DNA from: Bacteroidota bacterium | Lineage (GTDB): Bacteria > Bacteroidota > Bacteroidia > Bacteroidales > UBA12481 | Assembly: GCA_043797975.1 (NCBI GenBank) | Contig: JAZDPC010000073.1 | Span: forward strand, 6,001-70,000 | Reading direction: 5' to 3' | DNA length: 64,000 nucleotides | Shown: piece by piece, positions 2,403-43,113 of the stretch | Position numbering within the stretch: the stretch's first letter is position 1 | Layout of the letters: every line of letters begins with the position of its first letter | Position numbers and translations under genes: made by a program | Notes under the pieces: generated by a model | Database searches by the model: none | Seen by the model: the letters and a program-made list of their open reading frames with translations, nothing else | What the model was told of the DNA's origin: nothing

Positions 2403-2481
2403 TGTTTTTCTTATGTTTTTTCAGCAATTCGGGCAGTGATTTCAGGGAAAAAGATGCTGAATCACACCGGATATATACCTT

Positions 2482-4290: not shown

Positions 4291-4472
4291 ATAACAGATC
4301 AGATAGTTGAATTAAATCGTTATTGTTTTGTCAGTACATTCTCAGCTTTGGCTATCCCAATCAATCGAAGTAAAAATATAACAAATTGGTGTATCAGGGT
4401 CGATTTGTTGAGGGAACCTGAAAGAATCTACCTATTTTCGGGACTCAATCCATTAAGAAAAGAACAAACAAT

Positions 4473-5798: not shown

Positions 5799-5804
5799 AT
5801 ACTT

Positions 5805-6746: not shown

Positions 6747-6750
6747 AACC

Positions 6751-7632: not shown

Positions 7633-7641
7633 TACCGGCTT

Positions 7642-8199: not shown

Positions 8200-8205
8200 T
8201 TATCG

Positions 8206-9093
8206 ATGAAGGTTCTGATCACAGGTGCAAACGGACAATTAGGTCAATCGCTGTTAATCGCGCCGATCAGTAAAGGTGAGTTTACCTGGATTCCGACGGA
8301 TTATCCCGAGCTGGACATCACCGACCAGTCAGACATTGATCGTTGGATGAAGAAAGCTTGTCCCGATATGATAATTAACTGTGCCGCCTATACTGCTGTT
8401 GATCAGGCTGAGGAAGAGCCTGAAAAAGCAAGGCAAATAAATGTTATCGGACCTTCGATGCTGGCTGTTACAGCCAAAAAAGCAAGCATCCCGCTCATAC
8501 ATTTTTCAACTGATTATGTATTCCCGGGCACAAACCGGATTCCTTACAGGGAAACGGATATTCCCGGTCCATTATCGGTTTATGGCAAGACCAAGCTGGA
8601 GGGTGAACAGGTTGTTATTCAAGCTGCCGGACCATCCATCATCATCCGCACCAGCTGGCTGTATTCAGAATTCGGAAAGAATTTTGTTCTGACGATGCTG
8701 CGGCTAGGCCGCGAAAAGGATCAACTGGATGTGGTCATGGACCAGATCGGCTGCCCGACCTATTCAGGAGATCTGGCTGATGCAACTATAACTATACTGC
8801 GAAAACTGCTGAAAAAACCGGAGGCATCCAATGGTTCCAAAATCTATCACTTTTGTAACACCGGCGAGACTTCCTGGTTTGACTTTGCGAAGGAAATCAT
8901 CAGACATTCAGGGCTCTCGTGCAGGATCGTACCTATACCAACGAAGCAATACCCTCAGCCAGCAACCCGTCCGGCTTACAGCGTTCTGGACACTTCCCGG
9001 TACAGGAAAGAATTCGGGGTTCTCATACCCCATTGGAAAACCAGTCTTGTTAAATGCCTGAATACTATATCAGGAAAAACAAAACAGATTTAA
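8206..9093 (+). CDS. rfbD: dTDP-4-dehydrorhamnose reductase
   Basis: ITGANGQLG, NCAAYTAVD, STDYVF, YGKTKLEGE, RPAYSVLD. Confidence 0.95.
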   Translation: MKVLITGANGQLGQSLLIAPISKGEFTWIPTDYPELDITDQSDIDRWMKKACPDMIINCAAYTAVDQAEEEPEKARQINVIGPSMLAVTAKKASIPLIHFSTDYVFPGTNRIPYRETDIPGPLSVYGKTKLEGEQVVIQAAGPSIIIRTSWLYSEFGKNFVLTMLRLGREKDQLDVVMDQIGCPTYSGDLADATITILRKLLKKPEASNGSKIYHFCNTGETSWFDFAKEIIRHSGLSCRIVPIPTKQYPQPATRPAYSVLDTSRYRKEFGVLIPHWKTSLVKCLNTISGKTKQI

Positions 9094-9105
9094 TTCAGGA
9101 AACCG

Positions 9106-10848: not shown

Positions 10849-10855
10849 AACAGTC

Positions 10856-11272
10856 ATGAAATCGTTTCGTAAAGAATTATGGTTTAACACTTCCAAACGC
10901 CGGGAATTAATCAATATCACCAGTCAAATTCAGGAGTGCGTGGAAGAGAGCAGGATCAGGGATGGTATACTTCTTTGCAACGCCATGCACATCACCTCCT
11001 CCGTCTTTATTAATGATGACGAGGCCGGACTGCACAATGATTTTGAAAAATGGCTGGAAACCCTGGCTCCGGAAAAACCGCACAGCCAATACGCCCATAA
11101 CCGTTTTGAGGACAACGCAGATGCACATCTTAAACGGACCATCATGGGCAGGGAGGTTGTAATTGCGATCACTTCGGGAGTATTGGATTTTGGTCCCTGG
11201 GAACAGATCTTTTACGGTGAATTTGACGGGAAGCGGGCTAAACGCGTTCTCGTTAAAATCATTGGAATGTAA
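10856..11272 (+). CDS. yjbQ: YjbQ/UPF0047 family protein (secondary thiamine-phosphate synthase)
   Basis: [40 protein letters not shown]. Confidence 0.9.
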
Positions 11273-11303
11273 TTGGTATTGTCGGGAAGGATAGGATCGA
11301 TCC

Positions 11304-12722
11304 CTACGACAAGAATTCCTGCCTGAAATTTACCAGGAAGACCTTTTCGGTGGCGCGGGTGATAGCAGTATAGAGCCATCGAAGGTATTCCCGGTCAATC
11401 CTGTCTTCGGAAATAAAACCCTGGTCTACATACACATGTTTCCATTGGCCTCCCTGGGCTTTGTGGCAGGTGACCGCATAGGCGAACTTAATCTGGAGGG
11501 CATTAAAATAGGGATCTTCCCTGATTGCATCAGACTTATGCTTCTTCCCTTTCATGTACTGGTAATCCTCCGATACAGCTGAAAAGAAATTTCTCATACG
11601 GTCCCTGTCCAGAGCGGGAGATTCAGCAAAGATCGTATCCATCATCACTTTCGCATCAAACTCAATATTACGGACATCCGTAAACCTGAGCATCAGGTCC
11701 CTGAAATTCAGGTCATACAGTTCCTTTTCAGCCCGGGTTCTCACTACTTCCAGGATATCCCCATTGGCGATGAAATCGATTTCCGGGGAATCTTTCAGCC
11801 AGTAATAATTGTTTTTGACGACCATCAGGAGATCCCCGTACCGGATATCTTCCTCATACCTCAGGATCATATCGCGTATACCCTTGTTATACCGGTTTGC
11901 GAGTTTGTTGGAGCGGCATACCACCATGGTTTCCTGAATCCCAACCGTACTATAACTGCGTTCAAGTTCCTCCATCAGCGCATCGCCCCGGATGGGGATG
12001 AAATCGTTAAACTTCCCCGACACCAGCTCCGGAAATCCTCGCTGATCCTCCTTCTGATTAAGCCTCTGACGTAATTTTGTTGCATTGTAAAGAATGCCGG
12101 AGTCCTGTGCCTGCCTGACAACCTCCTGCAAACAATGCTCCTCTACCGGGAGACTATAGCGGGTAAGGTAATTCAGGTTGAGGGCATCACTCTGGTCAAA
12201 ACCAACCGGTGGCAACTGGGCATCGTCACCGATCAGGATCAGCTTGCATCCCTGGCCGCTATACACATAAGATATCAGGTCATCGAGCAGATGTCCCGAA
12301 CCGAAAGGAGATAATTCCAAAGACTGGTTACTGATCATCGAGGCTTCATCAACGATAAACAGAACATTTTTATGGAGATTCCTGTCAAGGCTGAATTCGC
12401 CAAATCCCTCAACGATCTTTTTTTGCCTGTATATCTTCTTGTGTATGGTAAAAGCAGGGGATCCGGAATAGCTGCTCAGCACCTTTGCTGCTCTTCCGGT
12501 TGGTGCAAGCAATATGGATTTTAGACGATAGGCAGCCAAGGTGCGGACCAGTGAAGCCACAAGGCTCGTTTTGCCGGTACCGGCATACCCGCGGATAACG
12601 AAGATCCTGTCTCCCTTCCCTAAGACAAAATCCGGCAATGAAGCGATCAGGCGATTCTGTCCGTCTGTTGGTTCATGCCCCAGGTTTTCCCTGATTTGAA
12701 CGATTAATTGATCAGAAATCAT
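11304..12722 (-). CDS. RecD-like SF1 ATP-dependent DNA helicase
   Basis: GYAGTGKT Walker A, LAPTGRAA, VDEASM, IGDDAQLPPV, YAVTCHKAQGGQW, YTAITRA. Confidence 0.9.
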   Translation of the reverse strand: MISDQLIVQIRENLGHEPTDGQNRLIASLPDFVLGKGDRIFVIRGYAGTGKTSLVASLVRTLAAYRLKSILLAPTGRAAKVLSSYSGSPAFTIHKKIYRQKKIVEGFGEFSLDRNLHKNVLFIVDEASMISNQSLELSPFGSGHLLDDLISYVYSGQGCKLILIGDDAQLPPVGFDQSDALNLNYLTRYSLPVEEHCLQEVVRQAQDSGILYNATKLRQRLNQKEDQRGFPELVSGKFNDFIPIRGDALMEELERSYSTVGIQETMVVCRSNKLANRYNKGIRDMILRYEEDIRYGDLLMVVKNNYYWLKDSPEIDFIANGDILEVVRTRAEKELYDLNFRDLMLRFTDVRNIEFDAKVMMDTIFAESPALDRDRMRNFFSAVSEDYQYMKGKKHKSDAIREDPYFNALQIKFAYAVTCHKAQGGQWKHVYVDQGFISEDRIDREYLRWLYTAITRATEKVFLVNFRQEFLS

Positions 12723-12768
12723 TTCGAAGAAAAAGATAGTCTTCAGCCCCGTTGTGTGAATTTTGTAT

Positions 12769-12776
12769 TAAATTTG
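12769..12776 (+). promoter_or_regulatory. Bacteroidota -7 promoter box (TAAATTTG)
   Basis: Exact TAnnTTTG match about 27 nt before ATG 12803, which supports that start codon. Confidence 0.55.
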
Positions 12777-12802
12777 CAGTCAAACTTAATAATTCCGCAG
12801 TA

Positions 12803-13405
12803 ATGAAAACTGTCAGATACATAGTCCAGATTATTTTGGGAGGATTGATCATCATTCTTGCCTACCTGATCTACAGCGGTATCATGAAGCCAATCAATTT
12901 TGAAACCGAAAGAAAAGCCCGGAGCGAAAAAGTGGTAGAACGGCTGAAAGACATTCGTACAGCCCAGGTTGCATATAAATCTGTATATCAAAAATATACA
13001 GGGAGTTTTGACACTCTCATCAACTTTGTCAAATATGACTCTTTCCCAATTGTGTTTGCTGAAGGTAGTGAAGACGACTCGCTGGCTGTTGCCAAAGGTC
13101 TGATTGTACGTAGGACCTCCTATGTTCCTGTACTGGATTCTATCTTCCCAAAAGGATATCCGGTCGATTCCCTGTGCTTTATTCCTTTTGCAGGAAGTAA
13201 ACAATTCATTTTGCAGGCAGGCGTGATTGTAACAGCATCCAAGGTTACGGTGCAAGTCTTTGAAGCCGGTGCTTTGAACTTCGATTTTCTCAATGGTCTT
13301 GACAGACAACTGATCATCAACCTTAATGACGTTGCCAAAGATTTCAAAGGCATCCGTGTAGGAAATATTGAAGAAGCAAACAATAACGCCGGGAACTGGG
13401 AATAA
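12803..13405 (+). CDS. Conserved Bacteroidota membrane-anchored hypothetical protein
   Basis: N-terminal TM, RLKDIRTAQVAYK..YTGSFDTL and a C-terminal NNNAGNWE. Recalled as the family usually found upstream of DUF3822. Start set at ATG 12803 rather than 12752. Confidence 0.8.
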   Translation: MKTVRYIVQIILGGLIIILAYLIYSGIMKPINFETERKARSEKVVERLKDIRTAQVAYKSVYQKYTGSFDTLINFVKYDSFPIVFAEGSEDDSLAVAKGLIVRRTSYVPVLDSIFPKGYPVDSLCFIPFAGSKQFILQAGVIVTASKVTVQVFEAGALNFDFLNGLDRQLIINLNDVAKDFKGIRVGNIEEANNNAGNWE

Positions 13406-13419
13406 TCTGCCGGTTCCGG

Positions 13420-14274
13420 ATGAAAGATATCAGTTTCATCGACGAATCATTTGATTCCGGCATAACTTCAACCTATCAGCTATCGGTACAATTCGGACCC
13501 CGAACCTTTGCATATGCCATTCTTGACACGATCCGGATGAAGTACATTGCGTTCAGGAGCTCCTGGTTTGACACTCCGGTAAAACCCGAAAACCAGAGTG
13601 AACACCTGAGTCATCTTCTTCATTCGGTACCCTTTTTGCTGAGAAATTATAAATCCGTCAGATTGATGATTCAAAACAGGGGAGCTCTGCTGATACCGGA
13701 ACCTCTTTTCAATCCTGACAATGCTTCCGATTATTTTTCAGTTTCCGCTCCCCCTGCAGGAAACGAAAGAGTATTGTTCAGCAGATTACGCTCGTGTAAT
13801 GCCTGCCTGTTGTTCTGCATCCGGGAAGATATCAGGCATCAGGCCCTTGCACTACTAAATGAGGTCACGATCACACATCAGTCTGTACCCTTTATTGAAT
13901 CAGCACTTAAAACCTTCGAAATATACGGCTCTGCAGACCAGCTCCATGTTAATATCACCCCTGATTTGGCTGATCTTGTTTTGGTCAAATCGGGACGACT
14001 GATTCTATATAACAGCTATCCCCTCCGGTCCGATGCGGATCTGGCCTACTTCATTCTCAACGCTTACGATGAGTTTGACCTTTCCCAGGAAGAGACACCC
14101 CTTATAATTTCCGGATGGCCTGAGCTTTACCCCGATACAAAAAAGGTACTACCCGGATATATCCGTTCGGTCCGCTTAAAGGAATTTGACAAGGGTTATC
14201 TCTACACTCAGAAATTCACTGATGTCCACCAATATTCGTATGCCAACCTGATAAACCTGGCACTGTGCGGATAA
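13420..14274 (+). CDS. DUF3822 family protein
   Basis: YQLSVQ, LLIPEPLF and LILYNSY..DLAYFIL motifs; position upstream of rsmD. Confidence 0.75.
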   Translation: MKDISFIDESFDSGITSTYQLSVQFGPRTFAYAILDTIRMKYIAFRSSWFDTPVKPENQSEHLSHLLHSVPFLLRNYKSVRLMIQNRGALLIPEPLFNPDNASDYFSVSAPPAGNERVLFSRLRSCNACLLFCIREDIRHQALALLNEVTITHQSVPFIESALKTFEIYGSADQLHVNITPDLADLVLVKSGRLILYNSYPLRSDADLAYFILNAYDEFDLSQEETPLIISGWPELYPDTKKVLPGYIRSVRLKEFDKGYLYTQKFTDVHQYSYANLINLALCG

Positions 14275-14798
14275 CAAACGGACCCCTTAGCGGAAGAAGG
14301 CCTCTAATACCTAAAAACCTTAAGGCCCGCCCAACCACCGACATGGCCCGTGAAGCCTTGTTCAACATACTCCGGAACCGTATTGATTTTGAATCAGTCA
14401 GAGTACTGGACCTTTTTTCCGGTACAGGCAGTATCAGCTATGAGTTTGCATCACTTGGCTGCCCATACATTCTGGCTGTCGAATGGGATCGCTTCCATTG
14501 CGAAGCCATCCGGAAAAACCTGAAGCTTCTTGATATCCAGACTATTCAGCTTTTTCAGACTGATGTCTTCTCATTCCTGACGCGCAGCCGGGATTCCTTT
14601 GACCTGATTTTTGCCGATCCTCCCTACGATCACAAGCACCTAGCCGACCTGCCCGAACTGATTTTTGAAGGCTCACTTCTAAAGCCGGAGGGCATGTTTA
14701 TTCTGGAGCATGGACCCGATCTATCGTTCGCAGATCATGAAAAATGGAAAGAAACAAGGATTTATGGTAAAGTCCATTTTACATTCTTTTCCTATTAA
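14265..14798 (+). CDS. rsmD: 16S rRNA m2G966 methyltransferase RsmD family
   Basis: ARPTTDMAREALFNIL, LDLFSGTGS, FADPPY, LEH. GTG start overlaps the upstream gene. Confidence 0.9.
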   Translation: MRITNGPLSGRRPLIPKNLKARPTTDMAREALFNILRNRIDFESVRVLDLFSGTGSISYEFASLGCPYILAVEWDRFHCEAIRKNLKLLDIQTIQLFQTDVFSFLTRSRDSFDLIFADPPYDHKHLADLPELIFEGSLLKPEGMFILEHGPDLSFADHEKWKETRIYGKVHFTFFSY

Positions 14799-27130: not shown

Positions 27131-29914
27131 CTACTTCCTACTTTCCTTCCTCCATGCCTCTACTTCTTTACTCTCCCTTAGCATATCCCTGACATTATCA
27201 ATATCCGGTGACTCCCTGACGGCTTTCCAGTCGAATCTCTCGTCATAGGGATCCATTGCTTTTTGAGGATCAAAGACTCTCGGATCCACCGCGATAGCTT
27301 CATACGGGGTAAAATCGGGCTGATCCGTGAACAGATCACTGAGATCAGTAGCTCCGGCATCGTATTGGTTCAGGTAGGGAATCCCCAGAATATTCCAGTA
27401 GGTTTTAAAAAGGCTCCCAAAACTGGAATGAGCATGTGACACATAGTTCTTTTTAGCGTACGGTGAGATCACCATCAGAACGCTTCTGTGGGCATCCACG
27501 TGGTCAACTCCGCCCTGTGCATCATCTTCGGTAATGATGATGGCCATGTTCTTCCATTGTGGTGTATGGCTCAGAAACTCTACCAAACGCCCGACTGCCA
27601 GGTCATTGTCGCACATATAACTTTCCCTGAACGGGTAACCGGCTTCCGGCCTTTCCCCTGCCCCATGATCCTGCGGAAGAATGACAGTCACCACAGATGG
27701 AAACTCATTCTCTTTCCCGGCCCATTTCCGGTTATATTCCTCAATGAACATATCGATCCGGAATTGATCGGGGATTGCCGTATTATAGGTCGGGTATTTC
27801 CTGGAGGAATTGGCAAACAAAGGAGCCGGCAACGGAAAATTAGCCAGGTGCCTGATCCCGGTATATTTGTATTCGGGCTGATAGGCCCCGGGCTCAAACA
27901 TCAGGCTGAATCCGAAATTGAAAAAAGAAATTTTATTGCGCTCGAGGTGTTCCCACATCGAGCCACCCTCATTATAGTCCTCCGGATAGATTGCTCCTGC
28001 CGAGCTGTTAAAACCCAGTATACCGGGAGCTTTTGATTTGGCGACGTAGTTTCGGTTGCCTCCGTAACTGGCCGGTACCGAGGATTCGACCCATTCATTG
28101 GGATACGTATTCACCAGCCAACGATGACCATCAGCCGATACATCCGAATCGACATAAAAATTGTCCGACATGGCAAAACGGTTCACCAGTGCCAGGTGGT
28201 TGATCATGATATCGGCATTTTCCACTTTCTGATCCTTAGCCCGGTTGGTAAATGATCTCCCTGCGCCATAACGCGCCAGGGAAGGTTCTCCCCTGCCGGC
28301 TTTTACCTGGCCAAAAACCTCGTCATACGTACGATTCTCCTTGGAAATGAAAACAATATGCCTGATTGGAGAATTTGAATATCCCGGATAGAGCGGGACC
28401 GGATTGTTTTTCCGTGATTGGAACACCTGATCATCTGATCTTTTCAGGTCAAAGTTCATTCCAATCACTTCGCGTGTCAATTTCCGTAATTCTCTTCCGG
28501 AGGGGATATCGAGCACCGACACTGATCCCTTCATCAGGTTTCCTATATAGGTTCCCTCCGGACCCTCGACAAAATCAGGGCCACCGTTCGGACCGCTCCC
28601 GAAACCCTTTGCATTCGTGACGATCAGCTTTTTACCATCCGGAGTAACTTTTAGCTTGGCCGGAAACCATCCGACCGGAATATGTCCCATTACCTTCTTT
28701 GAAGCAACATCAATCACAGCAACCGCATTGATCCCTGACTCAGCCACGAACAACTTCTTATAGTCCGGCGAAACGGCAACTCCAAAGGGAATGATCCCCC
28801 TGAAGTGTCTCATTCTCTCATCAGGTATCAGTGAAATGGTGCCAACGACGGTATCGCTGACAATGTCGATGACCGAAATGTTGTCGTTGTTTCCATTGCT
28901 GACAAAAACATAATCCGGAGTAGCCACCACGGAATTAGGGCTGGAGCCGCCGACTGCCGGAAAATCCTCCAGCATTTCACCGACCAGGGTACCGGTCTTG
29001 ATTTTTGCTGTTACGCAGGGATCATCGGGATCAGAGACATCTATGGTCCAAACCGAAAAGGATTCCGGCACATTGGGTTCTCCGAGGCCCGGTATATCAA
29101 GGGTATCGGTATCGATCCCTTCTTCGGCTTCCCGGGATCCGTAAGCGAAAGCGGGAAAAGCCAGGGATGTCCGCTCCAGGCTGTCGGGATCAAGACTTGC
29201 AAATCGCGTATATTCAAACATACCAACATTGGCGACGTAAACCTTTTTTTCATCGGGAGAGAGGCATATTCCGAAAGGGTATCTTCCTGTATTAATCCTG
29301 TACAGGACATTTCCTGAAACAGGGTCAATGATCAGCATGATAAAATTGATCTGATCAACGGCATACAACCTTGTACCGGCCTTGTTCAGGACCATATCAC
29401 CTATGTAACCCAGTGTAAAATCCCGATTCCCGACAACGGCGCCACAGGGTATATGTCCTTTGTCGGAACCTGTGTTCAGGTCGAATTTGTATATTATATT
29501 CTCCTGACCTCCTGAAACATACACGATTGAATTTTCCGGAGATATGGCCAAACCCATAAAAACGCTGGCCAGTATTCCCTTATTCGTTGCAGCACCCGGC
29601 GGAACTTGTAAAATTTCAGGTTTCTGTGATTGAATATTTTTAAGAATAGTGATCGACAGCGGGCTGGTTCCGGAGTTTGCAGTAACGGCAATCTGGCCGT
29701 TCGGACTCATGCACAAGCCATAGGGATGGGGAGCCGTAACAAAGGTATTTCCAACCGGCTGGATCAGTCTTCCGTTTGGAATCACCGTGATACCGGCAGA
29801 ATCGATCTCAGTATAACGGTCACCTGCAGGAGCCTGAGAAATCCAGACCGGGCTTTTATTGTTGCATGACACCAATGCCGTGGACAACAGACAAATCAAT
29901 ACAGTTCTTTTCAT
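27131..29914 (-). CDS. Bifunctional YncE-type beta-propeller / phosphoesterase (alkaline phosphatase superfamily) lipoprotein
   Basis: Lipobox LVSC; YVTN-like repeats (GRYPFGICLSPD, IPVGWFP); phosphoesterase motifs KENRTYD, SADGH, EDDAQGGVDHVDAHRS. Confidence 0.88.
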   Translation of the reverse strand: MKRTVLICLLSTALVSCNNKSPVWISQAPAGDRYTEIDSAGITVIPNGRLIQPVGNTFVTAPHPYGLCMSPNGQIAVTANSGTSPLSITILKNIQSQKPEILQVPPGAATNKGILASVFMGLAISPENSIVYVSGGQENIIYKFDLNTGSDKGHIPCGAVVGNRDFTLGYIGDMVLNKAGTRLYAVDQINFIMLIIDPVSGNVLYRINTGRYPFGICLSPDEKKVYVANVGMFEYTRFASLDPDSLERTSLAFPAFAYGSREAEEGIDTDTLDIPGLGEPNVPESFSVWTIDVSDPDDPCVTAKIKTGTLVGEMLEDFPAVGGSSPNSVVATPDYVFVSNGNNDNISVIDIVSDTVVGTISLIPDERMRHFRGIIPFGVAVSPDYKKLFVAESGINAVAVIDVASKKVMGHIPVGWFPAKLKVTPDGKKLIVTNAKGFGSGPNGGPDFVEGPEGTYIGNLMKGSVSVLDIPSGRELRKLTREVIGMNFDLKRSDDQVFQSRKNNPVPLYPGYSNSPIRHIVFISKENRTYDEVFGQVKAGRGEPSLARYGAGRSFTNRAKDQKVENADIMINHLALVNRFAMSDNFYVDSDVSADGHRWLVNTYPNEWVESSVPASYGGNRNYVAKSKAPGILGFNSSAGAIYPEDYNEGGSMWEHLERNKISFFNFGFSLMFEPGAYQPEYKYTGIRHLANFPLPAPLFANSSRKYPTYNTAIPDQFRIDMFIEEYNRKWAGKENEFPSVVTVILPQDHGAGERPEAGYPFRESYMCDNDLAVGRLVEFLSHTPQWKNMAIIITEDDAQGGVDHVDAHRSVLMVISPYAKKNYVSHAHSSFGSLFKTYWNILGIPYLNQYDAGATDLSDLFTDQPDFTPYEAIAVDPRVFDPQKAMDPYDERFDWKAVRESPDIDNVRDMLRESKEVEAWRKESRK

Positions 29915-33769: not shown

Positions 33770-33816
33770 ATTGGATTTTTTATATTTAGATGCAGAAATC
33801 AATCAGAAATGGAGAA

Positions 33817-34836
33817 ATGTCACTAAATAAATATGCTGCAATACGTTACCGGATCATTGATCAGTGTATCCGGAGCCGCTCAAAAGCCTTTCCCTCCAAG
33901 GAATACCTGAGGCAGGCGTGTGAAGAGGCCCTCTATGGTTCATCCACCGGGCAGAACATCTCGCTCTCGACAATAGATAAGGATATTTGGGCCATGAAGA
34001 ACGAATCAGCCCTTGGATATGCCCCTGTTGTTTTCGACCGTCAAAAGGGTGGTTATTATTATTCCGATCCGGAATTCAGCATCAATCTTCCACTCACCAG
34101 TGAAGATGTTGAGCTAATCCGGCTGGCCCTGCAAACCCTTACCCATTTCAAGAACAGCCAGATCTTCCGGGATCTCGAAAATGCGGTTGACAAGATCCAG
34201 GGCAGGATCTCACTGGCCGACCGGTTTACAGGGACAAACCTGGACCGGATCATCCAGTTTGAATCCTCGACTCTCAGCTCGGGTCAGGAGCACCTGCCGG
34301 TCCTTCTCGATTCAATAAAGGATAAAAGGGAAATTGAATTTGACTATACCCCCTATATCGACGGAAGGCCCAGACACTATATATATCAGCCTTACCTGTT
34401 GAAGGAAAACAAGAATTTATGGTACCTGGTTGGCAGGGACGTCGATCAGGATAAAATCCGAACCTTGGGATTGGACAGGATATCCTGCATCAAGGTAACT
34501 GACAACACATTCTATCCTGATAAAAACTTCGATCCGGAGCAATTCTTCCTGTACAGTTTTGGAATCGGCACCTATTCAGGAGTACCCGAGGCTATTATCC
34601 TAAAGGCAGATCCCGTCCAGGCGCGCTATATTCTGGCCAGTCCCCTGCATCCGACACAGCAGGCGAAAGTAAATGAGGACGGATTCACCGACTTTCATTT
34701 GACCGTAATCCCTTCGGATGAACTCAGAATGCAGATCTTAAGCTATGGCCCAAGGGTTGAGGTACTGAGCCCCGGATGGCTGCGTGAGGAAATCCGGGAA
34801 AACCTGACCAAGGCTCTGGAAAACTATTCGGAATGA
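33817..34836 (+). CDS. wHTH-WYL(-WCX) transcriptional regulator
   Basis: MSLNKYAAIRYRIID N-terminus typical of Bacteroidota WYL proteins, ISLSTIDKDI HTH, PYLLKE...WYLVG, LDRI, C-terminal ILSYG..VEVLSP.WLRE. Start 33817 (ORF track gives 33790). Confidence 0.92.
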   Translation: MSLNKYAAIRYRIIDQCIRSRSKAFPSKEYLRQACEEALYGSSTGQNISLSTIDKDIWAMKNESALGYAPVVFDRQKGGYYYSDPEFSINLPLTSEDVELIRLALQTLTHFKNSQIFRDLENAVDKIQGRISLADRFTGTNLDRIIQFESSTLSSGQEHLPVLLDSIKDKREIEFDYTPYIDGRPRHYIYQPYLLKENKNLWYLVGRDVDQDKIRTLGLDRISCIKVTDNTFYPDKNFDPEQFFLYSFGIGTYSGVPEAIILKADPVQARYILASPLHPTQQAKVNEDGFTDFHLTVIPSDELRMQILSYGPRVEVLSPGWLREEIRENLTKALENYSE

Positions 34837-37137
34837 TTATCGGACAAGGAGAGTCCGGGCTTTTGAGTCCAGCAACCCTTGCGTATCTCTGACCTGTACT
34901 TTAATGATATAAGTTCCGGGAACCGGGAATGTCCTTTCAAATATTTTTTCAACTGTGAATTCCGTATCGTAAACATTATCGTTGTCCCAATCCCACCGTA
35001 CCTCCAGCAGTTCAGGGCTGTCTTCGGCATCCGTACAGGCGGATGCATCAAAAGCAAAGCGGGTTTCAATGGTTCCGGAAGCAGGGTTGATGGAAAAATC
35101 AGCAACCGGCGGCTGATTAAGATTAGTAACAACAACAGGTTTCGAAACAGTGCCGATATAGTCTTCTGTATCTGTAACTTCCAGGACGACCGTGAATGTA
35201 CCCGCGGTTGAGAATATATGAGTAATGATCTTCCCTGTACTGTATCCGGTATCATAAACACCGTCATTATTCCAATCCCATCGTACCCTCAGCTTATCAG
35301 ATGAATCCTCGGTATCCGATGATCCGGAAGCATCAAAATTGAATTCGGTTTCTATGGTCCCTGTCTCCGGATCAACAGTGAACAATGCTGTCGGTTTGAT
35401 ATTGGCCGGACCGACCTTGATCAGTCTTGTGGTTGAGCCACTTAGCCCTTCCGTGTCCATTACCTCCAGCTTTGGCATATAGTTCCCTGGCTCGGTATAA
35501 AAATGTACTTCCGCTTTTGTCTTTGAAAACGAAGTGTCCCATAAACCATCTCCGTCGAAATCCCACCTCACTTTCAGCTGATTAATGTCATCCTGGGCAT
35601 CGTAACAACCTGATGCATCAAAAACGAAATAATCGGTTATCCTTCCGGTCTCGGGGTTGACATTAAAATGAGCTATTGGGGCTGACGAAGAGAGGTTCAC
35701 CTCAACCGGCTTGGAGATCCTTGATGTGAGTCCGGCAGCGTCCTTGACCTCTAAAACCGGCTGATAAATGCCAGGTTGCGGATATAGATGCAGTACAGTC
35801 TTGGAGGTTGAAAACTCTGTATCAAAATGGCTGTCGGAGTCAAAATCCCATCGAACTTCAAGCAATCCTGATTCAGTTTCTAAATCTGAACATCCGTTTG
35901 CATCAAACTCAAAATTGGTATCGGTATAACCAACCGATGGATTAATTGTAAATACAGCCTTGGGTGCCTGGTTCGGGGTTGTTCCCGACTCGCTCCCGTG
36001 AACAAGAACGATCGTCTCTTCCGGCAGGGATTCCCCGGCTATGGAAAATGCTTTTCCTGCCTTCAGGCCGCAGATCTGGACCTGCATGTCCTGAGAAATG
36101 GACCAATCCGGGAAGTCAACCTCGCTTCCAACCGACGCAAATAGTCTTTTAACCAGTTGTACCCCGTATTCACCACAATATACCGGTGTAATTTCCCTGT
36201 ACAGGAATATCTCACCGTATGATCCGGTAAATTTCGAAACTGTCCTGGACAGGACCTCGAACAACTCATAATCTACCGTATGCGAAATGTCCCAATCCGA
36301 CCAATGATTATTGACAAGGACCGCGCTGCCTTTTTCCCTGGCCGAAAAGTTAAACAGTATGGTGGTATCTGACTCCATAACTACATGAAAACCGATATAG
36401 GATCTGACCTTGTAGAACACCGGGATATTCCCTGAATAAAAAGGCCCATGTACTGTTTCTTCAACCAGCAGGCTATCCCGGGCATCCAATGCTCCGCCTG
36501 ATTCGATCATGACATCGACAGCCAAAAGTGCATCATAATCAGTGGCAAGCGAGTAGCGCTTCAGCCATGGATCTGAGCCGGCACCGGAAACCTTATGGGT
36601 AATTGAATAACCGTTTGCGAATTTACCATCCAGAATATGAACGCGAAGGCTTTTACCACCCCACAGTTCGTCGAACAGATAAATCCCATCGAGTTGCATG
36701 GTATCACGATTCCAGGCCTGAGGCAAAAAACGGGTTCTGGCAGAAAAGCTATCTTGAGTGATGGAATCAACGAGAACCATATCCGTCCAAACGGTCTCCA
36801 ATCCCGATCGGGTTAAATCCACAGTCACCCGTGAGTCAGTCAGGCTAAACCCGGCTACCGTTCCAAATATTCCTTCCCCCAGGGGATAAAACAAATGGTC
36901 CCCCTTCTGCATCCCAGGCATTTCACCAATGATATCAAACCGTACCTGTCCGTTGGTTCTAACAGGATTAGTAAGATCATTGGTATCTAAAACAAGTGTG
37001 GATGGATCCATCCTGGTTTCGCCCGGAACGACATCGCCATCCCGGTCAATAATGTTTTCACGCTGGCAACCTGCCAGAATGAGCAGCAGGAGTATCCTGA
37101 ACAGCAAGGAAGAGTGATATTTCTGAAAACGGATCAT
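34837..37137 (-). CDS. PKD-repeat lipoprotein (4 C-terminal PKD domains)
   Basis: Lipobox LAGC; four repeats of P.A.F...P..G...T.F.FDA..C/S.D......L.VRWD(F/W).......H.Y..PG.Y...LEV.D..G. Confidence 0.88.
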   Translation of the reverse strand: MIRFQKYHSSLLFRILLLLILAGCQRENIIDRDGDVVPGETRMDPSTLVLDTNDLTNPVRTNGQVRFDIIGEMPGMQKGDHLFYPLGEGIFGTVAGFSLTDSRVTVDLTRSGLETVWTDMVLVDSITQDSFSARTRFLPQAWNRDTMQLDGIYLFDELWGGKSLRVHILDGKFANGYSITHKVSGAGSDPWLKRYSLATDYDALLAVDVMIESGGALDARDSLLVEETVHGPFYSGNIPVFYKVRSYIGFHVVMESDTTILFNFSAREKGSAVLVNNHWSDWDISHTVDYELFEVLSRTVSKFTGSYGEIFLYREITPVYCGEYGVQLVKRLFASVGSEVDFPDWSISQDMQVQICGLKAGKAFSIAGESLPEETIVLVHGSESGTTPNQAPKAVFTINPSVGYTDTNFEFDANGCSDLETESGLLEVRWDFDSDSHFDTEFSTSKTVLHLYPQPGIYQPVLEVKDAAGLTSRISKPVEVNLSSSAPIAHFNVNPETGRITDYFVFDASGCYDAQDDINQLKVRWDFDGDGLWDTSFSKTKAEVHFYTEPGNYMPKLEVMDTEGLSGSTTRLIKVGPANIKPTALFTVDPETGTIETEFNFDASGSSDTEDSSDKLRVRWDWNNDGVYDTGYSTGKIITHIFSTAGTFTVVLEVTDTEDYIGTVSKPVVVTNLNQPPVADFSINPASGTIETRFAFDASACTDAEDSPELLEVRWDWDNDNVYDTEFTVEKIFERTFPVPGTYIIKVQVRDTQGLLDSKARTLLVR
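34840..35973 (-). repeat. Four ~95-aa PKD repeats (protein-level, diverged)
   Basis: Repeats begin at NQAPKAVF, SAPIAHF, NIKPTALF and NQPPVADF. Confidence 0.85.
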
Positions 37138-37146
37138 CTGAAAACT

Positions 37147-37518
37147 CTATTGAATATGGATAACGACAACCAGACGTTCATTCATTACCAAAGGCTGACT
37201 GGTACTGATCTCATTCAGGGCATTATCAGCCTCTCCGGATCTGACATAGATATAATAAATGGCTTCGTCAAGGTCAGAAAAGAGAATATGTCCGGCAGCA
37301 TCAGATTTCCGCCATACCTGTACCGGATTATCAAGAGAAATCCACTCTTCATAGTTTGCGAACAAAGCTGCATAGGCTCCTGGAACCGGTTGATTATCAG
37401 CATCCAGGATATGAATCTCCATTTGTGGCAGGTTATCAGGCTTTTCACATGCATAAAAGCTGCAAACCATCAGGCAAACGGCGGTTAAAGTCTCTAATAT
37501 CCTTGCTGATCGTGCCAC
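37147..37518 (-). CDS. Small lipoprotein, probable carboxypeptidase-regulatory/transthyretin-like beta-sandwich
   Basis: Lipobox FYAC; pattern I.ILDADNQPVPGA..ALF...SDAAG.ILFSDL....YYI. Confidence 0.7.
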   Translation of the reverse strand: MARSARILETLTAVCLMVCSFYACEKPDNLPQMEIHILDADNQPVPGAYAALFANYEEWISLDNPVQVWRKSDAAGHILFSDLDEAIYYIYVRSGEADNALNEISTSQPLVMNERLVVVIHIQ

Positions 37519-38766
37519 TTATCTTTTCTCCTTGCTCAAAATAATCATAAAACCGACACTTATCGAAAGATCCCTGTACAAGGTCTTTGCATTATTGCCC
37601 CACAGTGGATTGAATCGTCCGGTATACTTCCCGTCTTCATAACTGGCCTGGACATTGTGATCCAGTGAAGTCAATCCCTGAAAATAGGCAGCCCCTGCTG
37701 TTAACTCAATCAGCCGTGAAACCTTATAAGCTAATCCGGCATTTGCTTCGAAACCAAGATTGAACCGGTTCATTTTTTCAACCCAATCAGGCTCACTGAT
37801 CACGTTGTCGAGGAGCAGTCCTGTATTTTCATTTTCTCCCGTAACCAGCTGAGTTTCAAAAATCCGGATTTCGGGGGACAATCCGGCACCGATATATGAA
37901 GACCATTTGATTCCCAAAGGCATACGGAATGTTAGGAATACCGGACAACCTGCCATCCAGATCCGGTTTGAAAAAACAATATTTTTCAGGTTCGGATCAA
38001 ATCCTCCGAATGCATCAAAACTATCCAATGTGAGGCTGCCGGAGAGAGTTCTGAAACCGGGCCTCACCGAAATGCCCCAGTGAGAATTGAAAAAATGGGA
38101 TAAAGTTAAACCGATCCTATAGCTCCAGTCTGACTTAAGATCAAAGCGTGAATCCTGATCAATGACGGAGTTAGTAAATGAGGTCCGGGAAGGAGAGAAT
38201 TCCAATCCGATCCTGCTACAGGTAACGGGAGCAGGTTCAATGCCGAAAATTACAAAATCAGAATTCTTCCGTTCTGTGTAATTGAATGCCACGAGGAATA
38301 TTCTCCTTGACCGGTAATTGTATTCTTTCCCATGTTTAAGTACAGTTTTCGTCTGATCAATCCGGGCTCTGACAATATACCGGTCATTGCGGTCGAACCT
38401 GGGTTTGCCCAGATAAGCCGATTCCGTAACCAGTTCCACCCTTACACCTCCAGGGTAATATTCCATCAGATTGGCGACATAATCCTGTATGCTGATCCGG
38501 CCAGCCACAGAGTCTCCGTTAAAATCGCTGACAACCTGGATTCTGGGATTGGAAAACAGTTGGATGAATGCTTTTTCCATGTCAGAATCAGCATTTGAGC
38601 TCAACCTGTTATGAAGAAATTCATATCTCTGAAGAAGGGTGATTACCGAAGTCCTAATCGAATCCATATCCCAGGCAGGTTCAGGCTGCGAGTTTCCACG
38701 CGGAGCCGATAATCCAAAAGCCAAAAGAAGAATGACAATATGACGACAGGTGCAGGGTATCTTCAT
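37519..38766 (-). CDS. Outer-membrane beta-barrel protein (PorT-like) with an N-terminal soluble domain
   Basis: Signal peptide, helical/alpha-beta N-terminal domain, then alternating amphipathic strands (IGLEFSP, YRIGL, YIGAG, LGFEANAG, YFQGLT, ISVGF). Confidence 0.7.
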   Translation of the reverse strand: MKIPCTCRHIVILLLAFGLSAPRGNSQPEPAWDMDSIRTSVITLLQRYEFLHNRLSSNADSDMEKAFIQLFSNPRIQVVSDFNGDSVAGRISIQDYVANLMEYYPGGVRVELVTESAYLGKPRFDRNDRYIVRARIDQTKTVLKHGKEYNYRSRRIFLVAFNYTERKNSDFVIFGIEPAPVTCSRIGLEFSPSRTSFTNSVIDQDSRFDLKSDWSYRIGLTLSHFFNSHWGISVRPGFRTLSGSLTLDSFDAFGGFDPNLKNIVFSNRIWMAGCPVFLTFRMPLGIKWSSYIGAGLSPEIRIFETQLVTGENENTGLLLDNVISEPDWVEKMNRFNLGFEANAGLAYKVSRLIELTAGAAYFQGLTSLDHNVQASYEDGKYTGRFNPLWGNNAKTLYRDLSISVGFMIILSKEKR

Positions 38767-38826: not shown

Positions 38827-41478
38827 TTAAACCAACTGACTAAGGTTGAATTCCTCGGTTTCGATCACGTTATTGTTCATGGTCAGATCCATCTTGCGTG
38901 TAAAAATCCTTATCTCACCAGTAAGCGCATTCACCAGACAACAGATCTGGTAAGGTTCTCTGAAGAGTTGCTCATGGTACGAAATGGCAGACGGAAGATA
39001 GGTGAAGATTTCCGATTTTCCCTGTCCCCACCAACCGAGGAGTGTATAACCCGGGATGTCCCGGGGAGAAGATTCATTAGCGATTTCAACGAACCGTTCA
39101 ACGAAAATATCAAACTGGTTGAGCTTACGGTCGGGATCTTCGGAAGGTTGGTAAGCGCCATATAGATATCCGAGAAGTTGATAGGACTCATCAGGAACAG
39201 ATACAAAGGATGACGCCTGATGAATATCTGCTGTTACCTGTTTGTGAAAGCTGACCGACCGGAGAACGGAATCGGACCAGGTAAGGTTAAAACTAAGCTT
39301 TAAATAATCAGCCTCTTTGTGGTCAATTACAGGAGTCCCGTTTTTTGGAGGAACCGGCGGATTGATAGAATACTGGTAAAGCTCCTCCCATTTAACAAAT
39401 GAAGCCGGATCGGGATACGGTTCAATATATCCTGATTTTCTTCTCAGGAACACGGCACTTTGCAGCTCCTCCGAACCGTGATTGATTAATAATCCGAACT
39501 GCCATTTTTCCTTAAAAAAATTGCGGTGAATCTTCATCAGCCCTTCCTGAATCTCAAGGCTATTATCGGAGCTTGAAGTAAACCAGCCAATAAGAAGGTA
39601 CTTTTTGTTTTGTTTGACAATCTCATCCAGTTCATCCATCAAATCAGCCCTGACCTCCATATCATTCTGAATATCAGGCCGCAGGTGCTTTGATGCACAA
39701 GCTTTCTCAACGATCATTTCATAGTGGGCAGCACCATTTCCGGGCAGCTTGTATTGGTTCCCAAACAGATAACCCCCAAAATCACCGGCCCTTTTTTCCA
39801 TGAATGCACCATGAACCATCTGGTAAACGGCTTTGATGGAAGAAAAGCTGTAATGGATTTTCCCGATCACCGATTCAGGCAGGGTTTCCCTGAAATCTGA
39901 TGAATAATAAGCTTCAGGAACACCATCGGGAAAGATTCCGGAATTGGCAGATTTTCCTGTGTGTAAAGTATCAGGGCTGTTATCACTAATCCTGATCTCA
40001 CCGGATTGGAGTTTCTTTTCCCGGATTATATTGCGAATGGTCAGAAAGATCACAAGCACAAGGACTATAAGCAGCCCGCCGGAGATCGCCCAATTTGAAC
40101 GGAACCAGGGTATTGCCTCCCGTCTGTCTGTGATATCCTGAATAATGGGATCAATAAGACCATTTGTTTGATTTATCGATTGCTCAGCCCGTGTAGATTC
40201 AGAATGGAGGTTTTCCAGCTCAGGAATCAGGTTTAATGTGATAACATCATTTCGATAAGCAGACCAAATTGTGTTGTGAGCTCCGACCAATTCCTCAGCA
40301 TCTGATCTGAAAATTTCCTGTTCCGAAATCAAAGAATCTGTCTCAGAAGCATATGAACGTCTTAATTTTCTGTTTAGGGTAACTAATTTGAGTTTTTGCA
40401 GTACGTCCTTTAGTTTAATGTCAAGTTCACTGATCGAAGCTTTATGCAGTGTAAAATCAGGCTTGTATTTTTCCAGGATACCGTTCAGTAAGCTATCCCT
40501 CTGGGGGTCCGCCAGTGACACAGTTTCGACAGGCAAGAGGCTTGTCAGTTGAAGTCTGTACTGATTATAAATAGTTTGCAGGATAGTTAATCTGCCTAAA
40601 AGGTTTGTGACCTTGTCCTTATACCCGGAAGCTGTATCCCTGGAAATACCTGAATTGTCAAGATTTGACTCAAACTGCTTGACATCCGTCTTAAAATTAT
40701 CCAGATCTGTGTTAAACAAAGTTGCAATCCCTCTGAGTTCATTGATTTTGCTCAGTGATACTTCGGATGATGGCTGCCTGCGAATGTCGGCAATTTCTTT
40801 TTCAAGGTTTTCTGCAGACTTCCTGTTCATGAATTCCATCCAGCGGATTTGCAGCCTCTGGAACTGATAACCTTGTTCCGATCCTTCAATCCTATTATGA
40901 TCCGCAACCTGATTATCCCGATTATCGGCCACTATTTTATTTTCGTCTGTTTTAGTCCGATCCGGAATATTCAGCGTCACCCGGATTCTTTTTCCCGAAG
41001 GTGTCCCGATTCTTTCCAGCTCACCTTTAGCAATCTTTTCGCGAGACAATGCATATTGAAAGCCGAAAGTCACAATGCAATCTCCAACAAAGCCTTCCTG
41101 TGCGGAAAACATCAACCTTCCGGAAGAGGGAAATGTTAGCTCGAACTTGTGATTTTGCTCAAAGTTTGTGCATTTCAGACCTGCCGGATTTATTTCGATA
41201 TCATACCGTGACAGATATAGAAAGGGCATATGGCTTGCGTCAGTAATAACTGATCCGTTCGCATCCATCCAGGTTACCGAGAAATCCATCTGGTAAGTCA
41301 ACTTGTCAGATTGGGCAGTTGTTGTAACAACAAGTACTCCTGACATGGGAGTATCGTTCCCGCTTCTCCAGTCGAAATTATTCCGGGATTCCTGGGAATA
41401 AGCCAGATTTGAAACACCGAGAAATAAAGCGAGGAAAATCGGATATTTGAGAAATACCGGATGCATACACTTACACAT
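38827..41478 (-). CDS. Large single-pass membrane protein with two C-terminal degenerate JAB/MPN-like domains
   Basis: Signal peptide ending ..AYS-Q, beta-rich domain, long helical region, TM WAISGGLLIVLVLVIFLTI, then a duplicated domain (FGGYLFG/LLGYLYG, LIGWF/LLGWW, HRNFFKEKWQ/HEQLFREPYQ). Confidence 0.75.
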   Translation of the reverse strand: MCKCMHPVFLKYPIFLALFLGVSNLAYSQESRNNFDWRSGNDTPMSGVLVVTTTAQSDKLTYQMDFSVTWMDANGSVITDASHMPFLYLSRYDIEINPAGLKCTNFEQNHKFELTFPSSGRLMFSAQEGFVGDCIVTFGFQYALSREKIAKGELERIGTPSGKRIRVTLNIPDRTKTDENKIVADNRDNQVADHNRIEGSEQGYQFQRLQIRWMEFMNRKSAENLEKEIADIRRQPSSEVSLSKINELRGIATLFNTDLDNFKTDVKQFESNLDNSGISRDTASGYKDKVTNLLGRLTILQTIYNQYRLQLTSLLPVETVSLADPQRDSLLNGILEKYKPDFTLHKASISELDIKLKDVLQKLKLVTLNRKLRRSYASETDSLISEQEIFRSDAEELVGAHNTIWSAYRNDVITLNLIPELENLHSESTRAEQSINQTNGLIDPIIQDITDRREAIPWFRSNWAISGGLLIVLVLVIFLTIRNIIREKKLQSGEIRISDNSPDTLHTGKSANSGIFPDGVPEAYYSSDFRETLPESVIGKIHYSFSSIKAVYQMVHGAFMEKRAGDFGGYLFGNQYKLPGNGAAHYEMIVEKACASKHLRPDIQNDMEVRADLMDELDEIVKQNKKYLLIGWFTSSSDNSLEIQEGLMKIHRNFFKEKWQFGLLINHGSEELQSAVFLRRKSGYIEPYPDPASFVKWEELYQYSINPPVPPKNGTPVIDHKEADYLKLSFNLTWSDSVLRSVSFHKQVTADIHQASSFVSVPDESYQLLGYLYGAYQPSEDPDRKLNQFDIFVERFVEIANESSPRDIPGYTLLGWWGQGKSEIFTYLPSAISYHEQLFREPYQICCLVNALTGEIRIFTRKMDLTMNNNVIETEEFNLSQLV

Positions 41479-41481: not shown

Positions 41482-41763
41482 TCAGCATCCTATACCTTTG
41501 AGCTTTTCGTATGCCTGGGTTATATTAACGATGAGGTCTTTCTTGAGATTATGAAAGTAAGGTCTTGATTTTCCGCATAGTTCAGGATCAAAATGGTTAA
41601 TCCTTTCAATAAGGTCATCTTTCAATATGATTGCTTCATTAATGACCTGCTCATATAGTGAGAAATCTTTCTCAGGATGCTCTTCCATGCAATCATAACA
41701 ATCAAGAATCAGATCGGTAATCAGATAATCAATGTCTTTCTTCAGGTCTTTCCTGCTAGCCAT
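41482..41763 (-). CDS. Small conserved Bacteroidales hypothetical protein
   Basis: MASRKDLKKDIDY...ERINH helical protein, recalled as a Bacteroidales-conserved family. Confidence 0.75.
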   Translation of the reverse strand: MASRKDLKKDIDYLITDLILDCYDCMEEHPEKDFSLYEQVINEAIILKDDLIERINHFDPELCGKSRPYFHNLKKDLIVNITQAYEKLKGIGC

Positions 41764-42180: not shown

Positions 42181-43113
42181 TCAAGGATTTAATTCCTTGA
42201 GTGAATCCTGATAAGTGGGTGGAATGGTAACCATCTTCTCAGGCAAGGTTTTATCCTTGTCATCCATGATGACAATCCTGATCAGATAAACGCCATCCAG
42301 TGTTGCAGTGACCCGGCACCAAAGGGTTGATTGCTCGATCGGAAGGATGAAAAGCAGTTCCCTGGGACGGCTTTTCAGGATAGTTCCGCCGGCCTTCATA
42401 CAGGCCCTGTAATAGCTTTCGAGCACCTCGACTGTCGAAACCGACCGGTCCACTTCACCATCCTGATCCCTGACTTCCAGTTTGATATCCCAGTAAGGCC
42501 CCATGACTTTCTGACGGTAAAGGGTGTCTTTTACATTCCACGTTAACTCAAGGTGATTGAACTTACTGAACTGGATTCTTGCAATAACGGATGACCTGAG
42601 ATAGGCAATCCTCGGCGGAAGGTCAACGGAGTCAACAAACCGGTCGTATCGGACATCCGGTTTCACACCGAACTTCAGGGGGTTGTCGAATTTCGTCTCC
42701 TTGATCAGCCTCAGCCGGTAAACCTTGTCACTTGAAAGGACGAGCCTGCCCCACACATTGCCCTGTTCCTCCGGAACTACAAAGTGAATCTGCAGAGTAT
42801 CCTGGAAAAACAATTGTCCACCCTTTTCAAGAATCTGATTTACAACAAATTCCTTGAATTTCTTCTTTTGCCGGAAAACCGAATCGTACGCATAGGATAT
42901 CTCCCAGTAATGTCCAAGAACCTGATGAAGGTTTTCTCCGTTTTCCTTTCGGATATCCAGGTAATTGAAAACATTGTATTTAACGATCTTTCCGGGTTTA
43001 CCTTTATACCCATCAAACTGAGGAGGGGCCGGCCAGGAAGGATTTTGTGAAATCACCGAATTCACACCAAGTCCCAACAATACTGGGAGTATCACTAAAT
43101 ATTTCAACTTCAT
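42181..43113 (-). CDS. Secreted hypothetical protein with an internal two-domain duplication
   Basis: Signal peptide; GHYWEI..EKGGQL..VWGRL..YRLRLI repeated as GPYWDI..KAGGTI..LWCRV..YLIRIV. Confidence 0.7.
   Translation of the reverse strand: MKLKYLVILPVLLGLGVNSVISQNPSWPAPPQFDGYKGKPGKIVKYNVFNYLDIRKENGENLHQVLGHYWEISYAYDSVFRQKKKFKEFVVNQILEKGGQLFFQDTLQIHFVVPEEQGNVWGRLVLSSDKVYRLRLIKETKFDNPLKFGVKPDVRYDRFVDSVDLPPRIAYLRSSVIARIQFSKFNHLELTWNVKDTLYRQKVMGPYWDIKLEVRDQDGEVDRSVSTVEVLESYYRACMKAGGTILKSRPRELLFILPIEQSTLWCRVTATLDGVYLIRIVIMDDKDKTLPEKMVTIPPTYQDSLKELNP

Follow-up and report, generated by a model that had tools for sequence, protein, structure and literature searches.

MPN- pseudo-enzymes are regarded as a eukaryotic theme, with representatives in the proteasome lid, the COP9 signalosome, eIF3, BRCA1-A/BRISC and EMC. 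The subject of this study is a bacterial gene on the minus strand, at positions 38827-41478, of a 64,000-nucleotide (nt) stretch of contig JAZDPC010000073.1 (assembly GCA_043797975.1), which comes from a member of the Bacteroidales in the phylum Bacteroidota; this whole stretch of DNA is called the window below. The product of the gene is very probably a dead tandem MPN protein, with two MPN domains that both lack the JAMM residues, and derives from a transmembrane (TM) JAB protein, hereafter TM-JAB. Active JAB proteins of bacteria are part of a described context. Bacterial operons combining a ubiquitin-like protein (Ubl), E1, E2, sometimes E3, and JAB are credited to earlier work in passages of two papers (PMC3417536, PMC5654768), and the passage in the first of them credits Burroughs, Iyer and Aravind 2011 with operons of this general kind (PMC3417536). 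The E1/E2/RING/Ub operon system of Caldiarchaeum has been reconstituted and is active, according to a passage of PMC5654768, and other E1/E2/JAB/Ubl operon types are listed in part of PMC1779556.

Internal Duplication and Structural Evidence

The list of open reading frames (ORFs) and their translations gave a minus-strand ORF at 38827-41478 with a product of 883 amino acids (aa). The parts of the gene, all on the minus strand, are as follows.

38827..41478, minus strand: whole gene, predicted to encode an 883-aa type-I inner-membrane protein
41395..41478, minus strand: signal-peptide-like hydrophobic segment, aa 1-28 (hydrophobicity scan, with aa 4-26 above threshold; presumably cleaved)
40909..41394, minus strand: beta-rich periplasmic ectodomain, aa 29-190 (from the neighbours of the ESM Atlas model)
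40105..40908, minus strand: long, probably helical stalk, aa 191-458, poorly conserved
40036..40092, minus strand: single TM helix, aa 463-481 (Kyte-Doolittle)
39340..39891, minus strand: MPN1, aa 530-713, without JAMM residues (AF2 model, Foldseek, VIA and alignment)
38830..39339, minus strand: MPN2, aa 714-883, without JAMM residues (AF2 model, VIA wide search and alignment)

The initial annotation, made from the letters of the window, had read two aligned copies of one domain after the TM helix, and all twelve segments quoted for them are present in register in the 883-aa product (aa 535-543/736-744, 567-573/768-774, 586-592/789-795, 627-633/811-817, 650-666/834-850 and 676-681/858-863). 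The interval given there, 38827-39915, corresponds to aa 522-883 plus the stop codon and spans both copies. The two-domain span stands, while the domain limits of 520-690 and 720-870 had to be moved and are closer to 530-713 and 714-883. The two copies also match each other, as had been claimed. BLASTP of aa 522-706 against aa 707-883 gave an E value of 4e-05 over 54 residues with 24% identity, and hhalign of the MPN1 and MPN2 profiles from 41 family members gave a probability of 98% and an E value of 1.6e-13 over 128 aligned columns. At the level of sequence, the internal duplication is well beyond chance.

Direct family searches returned little: Pfam had no match at E<=1 to the whole 883-aa protein, a PDB sequence search with aa 522-883 gave a chance match alone (E 0.83), and NCBIfam and PADLOC assigned the gene product to no family. 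The AF2 model of aa 522-883, based on 34 homologs, had a mean predicted local distance difference test (pLDDT) value of 85.7 and a predicted template modelling (pTM) score of 0.53. Foldseek against PDB with this model gave 88 matches at E<=1e-3 (best 5cw3_B, 2.3e-6), and those listed are MPN proteins or MPN-containing complexes, namely KIAA0157/BRCC36, Rpn8/Rpn11, CSN5/CSN6, eIF3, Npl4 and the Caldiarchaeum Rpn11 homolog. After re-alignment, the Foldseek matches were found to cover model residues 9-192, which is MPN1, and the best structural match of this domain was 6fno_B, with a VIA Z of 12.8 and a root-mean-square deviation (rmsd) of 2.5 over 132 residues.

Since MPN1 alone filled the match list, MPN2 was folded separately, and the model of aa 715-883 had a pLDDT of 89.3 and a pTM of 0.86. 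Foldseek on MPN2 alone gave no match at E<=1e-3; the best E value was 2.8e-3, in a list of mostly MPN chains. MPN2 was also searched against 48,161 chains with VIA, an aligner independent of Foldseek. The best structural match was 6fjv_A (Z 10.5, rmsd 2.8, 118 residues), and 24 chains were matched at a Z of at least 8. The top 16 chains (Z 8.7-10.5) all belong to Rpn11, Rpn8, BRCC36/Abraxas, CSN, eIF3, Cap3, JAMM1 or a bacterial Ubl-deubiquitinase, and unrelated folds appeared only below Z 4. Because the VIA matches of both MPN1 and MPN2 are to MPN chains, both copies have the MPN fold, as proposed from the motif pattern in the first reading of the gene.

Loss of the JAMM Residues

Both domains were aligned with active relatives by MAFFT. 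At the JAMM Glu/His/His/Ser/Asp positions, MPN1 has D/T/S/Q/L (GWFTSSSD) and MPN2 has Q/G/G/L/A (GWWGQGKS). In place of the catalytic Glu of the E-x-G-G motif, present in every aligned active relative, MPN1 has Asp and MPN2 has Gln. The HxH zinc ligands are represented by T-S-S in MPN1 and G-Q-G in MPN2, and Ser-x-x-Asp, which provides the structural Ser and the third zinc ligand, by Q..L and L..A, respectively. The loss of HxH...D that had been noticed in both copies therefore extends to all five JAMM positions of each domain. The dead clade as a whole (57 proteins, P0001-P0057) lacks HxH.

The initial annotation had also raised the case of other His or Asp residues completing a zinc site, and such an alternative site was sought across 41 relatives, with none found to be conserved. 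The ligand-type residues kept in at least 90% of these relatives are D612, E616 and H651 in MPN1 and D736, H835 and E855 in MPN2; the acidic C-terminal tail is likewise kept, and no Cys is conserved. E616, H651 and H835 recur in the majority of the aligned active relatives without serving there as zinc ligands, which makes an alternative metal site unlikely. The proposal of an MPN-minus pseudo-enzyme pair thus agrees with the fold of both copies, the loss of JAMM in both and the lack of a conserved alternative site among these relatives.

Relatives and Origin of the Protein

A word-indexed search found 46 protein clusters at E<=1.7e-78, with lengths of 562-899 aa, which are unnamed or hypothetical, have no Pfam domain and originate from Bacteroidota/Bacteroidales metagenome bins. 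The family profile, compared with 1.84 billion representatives, matched 205 proteins at E<=1e-3. When 50 of the distant matches were scanned, Pfam JAB was found at E<=0.01 in 46 and at or above its cut-off in 43, and GW-x-H-[ST]-H-P is present in nearly all of them. P0058 and P0059 (895 and 918 aa; E about 1e-107) were matched across nearly the full length of the profile (positions 17-880 for P0058, E 2.1e-107), and P0068, P0070, P0072, P0078 and P0120 over most of its length (78-866 for P0068 and 114-780 for P0070). The layout of these relatives comprises a signal peptide, an N-terminal domain, a long charged stalk, one TM helix, an MPN domain keeping HxH and a second MPN-like domain, which is already degenerate in P0058, P0059, P0068, P0070, P0072, P0078 and P0120. 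Because full-length relatives pair a JAMM MPN domain with a degenerate MPN2, the ancestor can be taken as a fused MPN+/MPN- pair.

In the 116 HxH motifs of relatives, the Ser is kept in 115 and the Asp in 112. P0058-P0060 keep E, HxH and S, and their Asp ligand is changed to Asn, these three being the only ones of the 116 motifs so changed. From their residues, they look like an apparent intermediate and a possible half-way stage. A maximum-likelihood tree of MPN1, made from 46 hand-chosen rows of five groups and rooted at the midpoint, recovered the dead clade as monophyletic (100/100) with a long stem (1.17 changes per column). The group closest to it in this tree is P0058-P0060, and the two groups together are separated from the rest with support of 98/94. 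With P0058 as query, the only matches in 401 genomes of the phylum were the source genome and two 775-aa JAB proteins, and full-length copies of the family in a sample of 401 genomes of the order occur in the window's genus only (4/4).

Tandem arrangements were also seen elsewhere among the relatives. P0103, P0106, P0135 and P0139 have two tandem JAB domains with HxH kept in both copies, and L031, L032, L033, L041 and L043 each contain two tandem MPN1-region matches inside E1/E2/vWA-RING loci.

Conservation of the Dead Domains

The mean identity of 40 relatives to the 883-aa protein was calculated per region and is 0.58 for MPN1, 0.46 for MPN2, 0.32 for the ectodomain, 0.32 for the TM segment, 0.23 for the linker and 0.21 for the stalk. 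Moreover, 21 of the 26 columns invariant across 41 relatives are within the two MPN domains. On these alignments, the dead MPN domains are the most constrained region of the protein, and purifying selection on them is strong.

Conjugation Genes of the Active Relatives

The gene of P0070 is located in L119 (G415:C685), from another family of the same order, where positions 1548-14423 form a run of genes on one strand. A ThiF-family E1 (E 7.7e-51), a 94-aa protein, a UQ_con-like E2 (E 1.5e-05) and a 241-aa protein of unknown type precede the 867-aa TM-JAB, which also carries a dead MPN domain, and a 787-aa protein with vWA and Prok-RING_1, two unknown proteins and a 1014-aa SrfB (E 1e-213) follow it. 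The 94-aa protein has weak YukD/ubiquitin matches; since its homologs end in ..K-L-V-A-G and the copy in G415 has four residues beyond this end, it fits a Ubl precursor. P0070 itself weakly matches PADLOC JAB models. Further Ubl-profile matches were found on the same contig at 23223-26338, two of them in tandem within one 364-aa ORF.

The context of active relatives was examined in 80 metagenome loci, many of them short, which are the best of 377 confirmed relatives. At least one of E1, Ubl, E2 and vWA-RING was located by tblastn in 55 of the 80 loci; among the 44 with a length of 9 kb or more, 39 were positive. The window's clade gave none by tblastn in any of its 26 loci (0/21 of those of at least 9 kb). 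The first reading had reported no E1, E2 or Ubl gene in the window, and tblastn with the operon proteins found none there either. It had also suggested checking homologs for HxH and for accompanying Ubl/E1/E2 genes; relatives of the same architecture have both, and the window's clade has neither.

Conjugation genes were also looked for beyond the locus. The source genome is a 3.01-Mb bin of 79 contigs and 73% complete, and PF01398 had no match in it at E<=0.1. Four genomes of the same genus, which are 98-100% complete and all carry the MPN gene, were compared with G415 as the control. The E2 protein query found nothing in these four and the source genome (0/5), nor did vWA-RING (0/5), apart from one weak vWA-only match in one of the five. 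PF00179 gave noise in the four genus genomes (E 0.014 and 0.036) and an E value of 4.3e-5 in the control. The profile of the operon-type Ubl had no match in any of the four genus genomes, in a search that did not cover beta-grasp proteins of the ThiS/MoaD type, and four matches in G415 (best 1.3e-34). The E1 query found only ThiF paralogs of 273-373 aa with 33-39% identity in the genus, as housekeeping enzymes would give.

Membrane Topology and Ectodomain

The only strongly hydrophobic stretches in the 883-aa protein are aa 4-26 and aa 459-488 (core 463-481). The Kyte-Doolittle mean over 19 residues reaches 2.68 in the TM helix, which is followed by a basic stretch. The MPN pair is predicted to be cytoplasmic and the head and stalk periplasmic, on account of the signal peptide, this basic stretch, and the cytoplasmic, ATP-dependent nature of the proteins with which the active relatives are partnered. 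The database copy of the product starts at Met5, has 879 aa and belongs to a 100% identical cluster, and the gene is single-copy in the source genome. The G+C content near the gene is 0.41-0.47 and is not distinct from the rest of the window.

The nearest structures to the ESM Atlas model of the ectodomain are generic beta-sandwich proteins, which are weak matches with TM-scores of about 0.5, and the stalk of relatives has only weak matches to coiled-coil families. The ectodomain recurs alone or in other architectures (P0066, P0067, P0080 and ORFs in G673 and G684). As it stands at the start of otherwise different secreted proteins, it is taken as a mobile periplasmic module. For instance, the region at profile positions of about 10-148 heads secreted proteins of 651 and about 554 aa, which are encoded in L116 (G673:C148, 64-2019) and L117 (G684:C18).

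Neighbouring Genes

The genes next to the MPN gene are listed below.

41482..41763, minus strand: 93-aa cytoplasmic protein, candidate partner, 3 nt upstream of the MPN gene, with no Pfam/NCBIfam match
37519..38766, minus strand: 415-aa outer-membrane beta-barrel with an extra N-terminal domain (Pfam OMP_b-brl_2, E 1e-05, aa 185-368)
37147..37518, minus strand: 123-aa small protein with a lipoprotein-like N-terminus (lipobox read by eye), abutting the barrel gene, with no family match
34837..37137, minus strand: 766-aa lipoprotein-like protein with four PKD domains (Pfam PKD_4, E 5.1e-35, 4 stretches)
33790-34836, plus strand: WYL + WCX regulator gene, convergent with the end of the PKD gene and kept here in most related loci

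The gaps between the MPN, barrel, small lipoprotein and PKD genes are 60, 0 and 9 nt, without terminator-like sites in them, and the PKD gene is the last of the run. Neither NCBIfam nor PADLOC assigned a family to the barrel, 123-aa and 93-aa proteins, and the PKD protein has only an NCBIfam match below the cut-off. A sigma-70 promoter scan found 12 sites against 15.7 expected from shuffles, with a model that excludes Bacteroidota promoters.

For the clade context, 26 loci of species-representative genomes were compared. In the 22 that reach far enough, the MPN gene is followed each time, even at about 29% identity, by the genes of the barrel and the 123-aa protein; the PKD gene is next in 20 of these 22, the remaining two stopping too early. 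On the other side, the 93-aa protein has 42 homolog clusters in the same lineage, 41 of which are 93 aa long. Its gene is upstream in 21 of the 26 loci, and in four of them it is about 5 kb away from the MPN gene. In L018, this interval holds a gene of about 4.9 kb (1420-6321) for a 1633-aa UvrA-like protein (ABC_tran, UvrA_DNA-bind), and a gap of about 5 kb is also seen in L022, L023 and L024. A complex prediction for the MPN pair and the 93-aa protein gave a score of 0.25, against a mark of 0.32, and speaks neither for nor against such a complex. Four distant relatives of the barrel in other families adjoin large secreted proteins rather than MPN genes and are uninformative.

Two other proteins of the window were noted. 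A 310-aa secreted protein without a Pfam/NCBIfam family (42181-43113, minus strand) keeps its place upstream of the acylphosphatase gene across related loci, and a 927-aa protein (27131-29914, minus strand) has weak beta-propeller matches (YNCE, SGL) and a Phosphoesterase-family domain.

Possible Function

The whole is probably best explained by a dead MPN pair that came from a TM-JAB ancestor and now acts as a non-catalytic docking platform. The ancestor was very probably a membrane-anchored JAB peptidase of E1/Ubl/E2/vWA-RING operons, with an active MPN+ domain fused to an inactive MPN- domain. In one uncultured Bacteroidales lineage, the active domain then lost all five JAMM residues, and the MPN gene its conjugation neighbours. 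The MPN-MPN module may now have protein binding as its sole role, as a platform at the cytoplasmic side of the membrane, where it would hold a partner instead of cleaving it and might couple a contact of the periplasmic head to a cytoplasmic ligand. Likely periplasmic contacts of the head are the presumably co-transcribed outer-membrane barrel and two lipoproteins, as the outer end of the stalk protein could reach the outer membrane, where these co-encoded proteins would be found. A linkage of the MPN gene with the downstream envelope genes as a cassette is somewhat doubtful. More tentatively still, the exapted MPN-/MPN- pair might be the cytoplasmic end of a four-protein envelope-spanning device without Ubl conjugation, whose members would be, just as tentatively, the surface PKD lipoprotein, the small lipoprotein, the outer-membrane barrel and the inner-membrane stalk protein.

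Several points limit these proposals. Docking is proposed as the most likely function by analogy with Rpn8, CSN6, eIF3f/h, Abraxas and EMC8/9. The gene order is weak evidence, because the 26 loci are close kin and the unrelated flanking genes for fucose isomerase, acylphosphatase and the WYL regulator are conserved in them as well. The co-occurrence of barrel and MPN genes is not independent either, since no genus but the window's has clear barrel orthologs among the sampled 401 genomes of the order (4/4 within it). By tblastn, the 80 loci of active relatives showed no barrel, lipoprotein or PKD neighbours. In addition, the tree is rooted only at its midpoint, and the direction of loss is therefore deduced from the family as a whole, in which possession of the JAMM motif is the general state; the source genome is also incomplete. 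As for the fold, the packing of MPN1 against MPN2 is predicted without confidence because of the pTM of the two-domain model. Pfam JAB (PF01398) matched the C-terminal fragment at E 0.062 with 13.6 bits, under the cut-off of 22.5, on the stretch aligned to the HxH part of the model, and weak matches of this kind were found in 11 of 35 family members (best E 0.0014). Homology to JAB is established indirectly, through the distant proteins matched by the family profile, since 43 of the 50 examined pass the JAB cut-off.

Of the other explanations, the strongest is a stand-alone membrane scaffold with no tie to the three downstream envelope genes, whose order would be inherited synteny. The unrelated flanking genes kept in the same loci, the active relatives without barrel, lipoprotein and PKD neighbours, and the origin of all loci from one narrow lineage are in line with it. 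However, the four genes lie on one strand with the short gaps given above and no terminator-like site between them, they stay together at about 29% identity despite the upstream rearrangement by the gene of the 1633-aa UvrA-like protein, and all four products are predicted envelope proteins; this explanation is thus rather unlikely.

It is less likely again that the dead MPN pair is a non-covalent Ubl receptor, holding a beta-grasp protein or a C-terminal tail, encoded elsewhere, at the membrane. MPN domains without zinc can bind ubiquitin or the tails of partners, with Prp8 and Npl4 among the structural matches, the Ubl partner of the ancestor ended in ..AG, and ThiF-family genes are present in the genus. 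Yet the operon-type Ubl profile had no match in the four near-complete genus genomes and four matches in the control, and the ThiF matches are housekeeping-like paralogs in length and identity.

A diverged peptidase, in which other residues rebuild a metal or catalytic site, is very improbable. Each domain conserves one His and two acidic residues, and partial sites exist in the family, where P0058-P0060 have changed only Asp to Asn; nevertheless, neither domain retains any of the five JAMM residues, a conserved Cys is lacking, each domain has a single conserved His, and E616, H651 and H835 are shared with most active relatives as non-ligands. A functionless, decaying relic of a lost Ubl system would fit the loss of the catalytic residues and of all partner genes, but is hardly credible given intact full-length ORFs in 46 protein clusters and 26 genomes and the fact that the dead domains, with 21 invariant columns, are the best-conserved part of the protein.

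Comparison with Known Systems

Full-text searching of the literature, which did not extend to Burroughs et al. 2011, brought up no account of a tandem dead MPN protein in bacteria. Burroughs et al. 2011 reportedly covers prokaryotic RING operons and may describe the active membrane-anchored form. The protein is a membrane-anchored MPN-/MPN- pseudo-enzyme of bacteria whose descent from an active form can be traced, and operons of the general kind that holds this active form are already known. It offers a tractable case for the role of an MPN domain after catalysis is lost, and would be an example of a Ubl-system component that was re-used in cell-envelope biology. The step from active JAMM to MPN- is seen here within bacteria, with its stages extant, and would be an independent parallel to the eukaryotic step: the MPN+/MPN- fusion in E1/Ubl/E2/RING operons, one ligand change in the sister group, and finally both domains dead and the conjugation genes gone. 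It also draws attention to the little-studied membrane-anchored MPN+/MPN- fusion, a single-chain counterpart of pairs of the Rpn11-Rpn8 type.

The nearest relative in sequence is the TM-JAB of E1/Ubl/E2/vWA-RING operons (e.g., P0070 in L119), which has the same full-length layout and an already inactive MPN2. The TM-JAB operon proteins keep E/HxH/S/D in MPN1 and adjoin E1/Ubl/E2/RING genes, whereas the window's protein has neither feature and, unlike them, precedes envelope genes.

Among bacterial and archaeal proteins of known structure, MPN1 and MPN2 both score highest against the Rpn11 homolog of Caldiarchaeum subterraneum (6fno/6fnn/6fjv; Z 12.8 and 10.5), itself a soluble, single-domain, active deubiquitinase. 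The JAB peptidases of bacterial defence, CBASS Cap3 (9ild) and the Bil/Bub deubiquitinases (8tyx/8tyy), have the same bacterial MPN fold, with Z 10.2-11.2 and 8.7-11.0; in contrast to them, the window's protein is membrane-anchored, duplicated and, judging by its residues, inactive, and it matches no PADLOC model.

The eukaryotic proteins Rpn8, CSN6, eIF3f/eIF3h, Abraxas/KIAA0157, EMC8/9 and the MPN domain of Prp8 likewise have an MPN fold without zinc, and use as a scaffold is theirs. Chains of KIAA0157, Rpn8, CSN6, eIF3 and EMC8/9 are among the best structural matches, with a sequence identity of 5-20%. The paired MPN domains recall Rpn11-Rpn8, and the two dead copies recall eIF3f-eIF3h, a pair in which both members are MPN-. 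In contrast to the eukaryotic MPN- proteins, the domains of the window's protein are fused in one chain, are placed at a bacterial inner membrane, belong to no PCI or BRCA1-type complex and have been derived independently.

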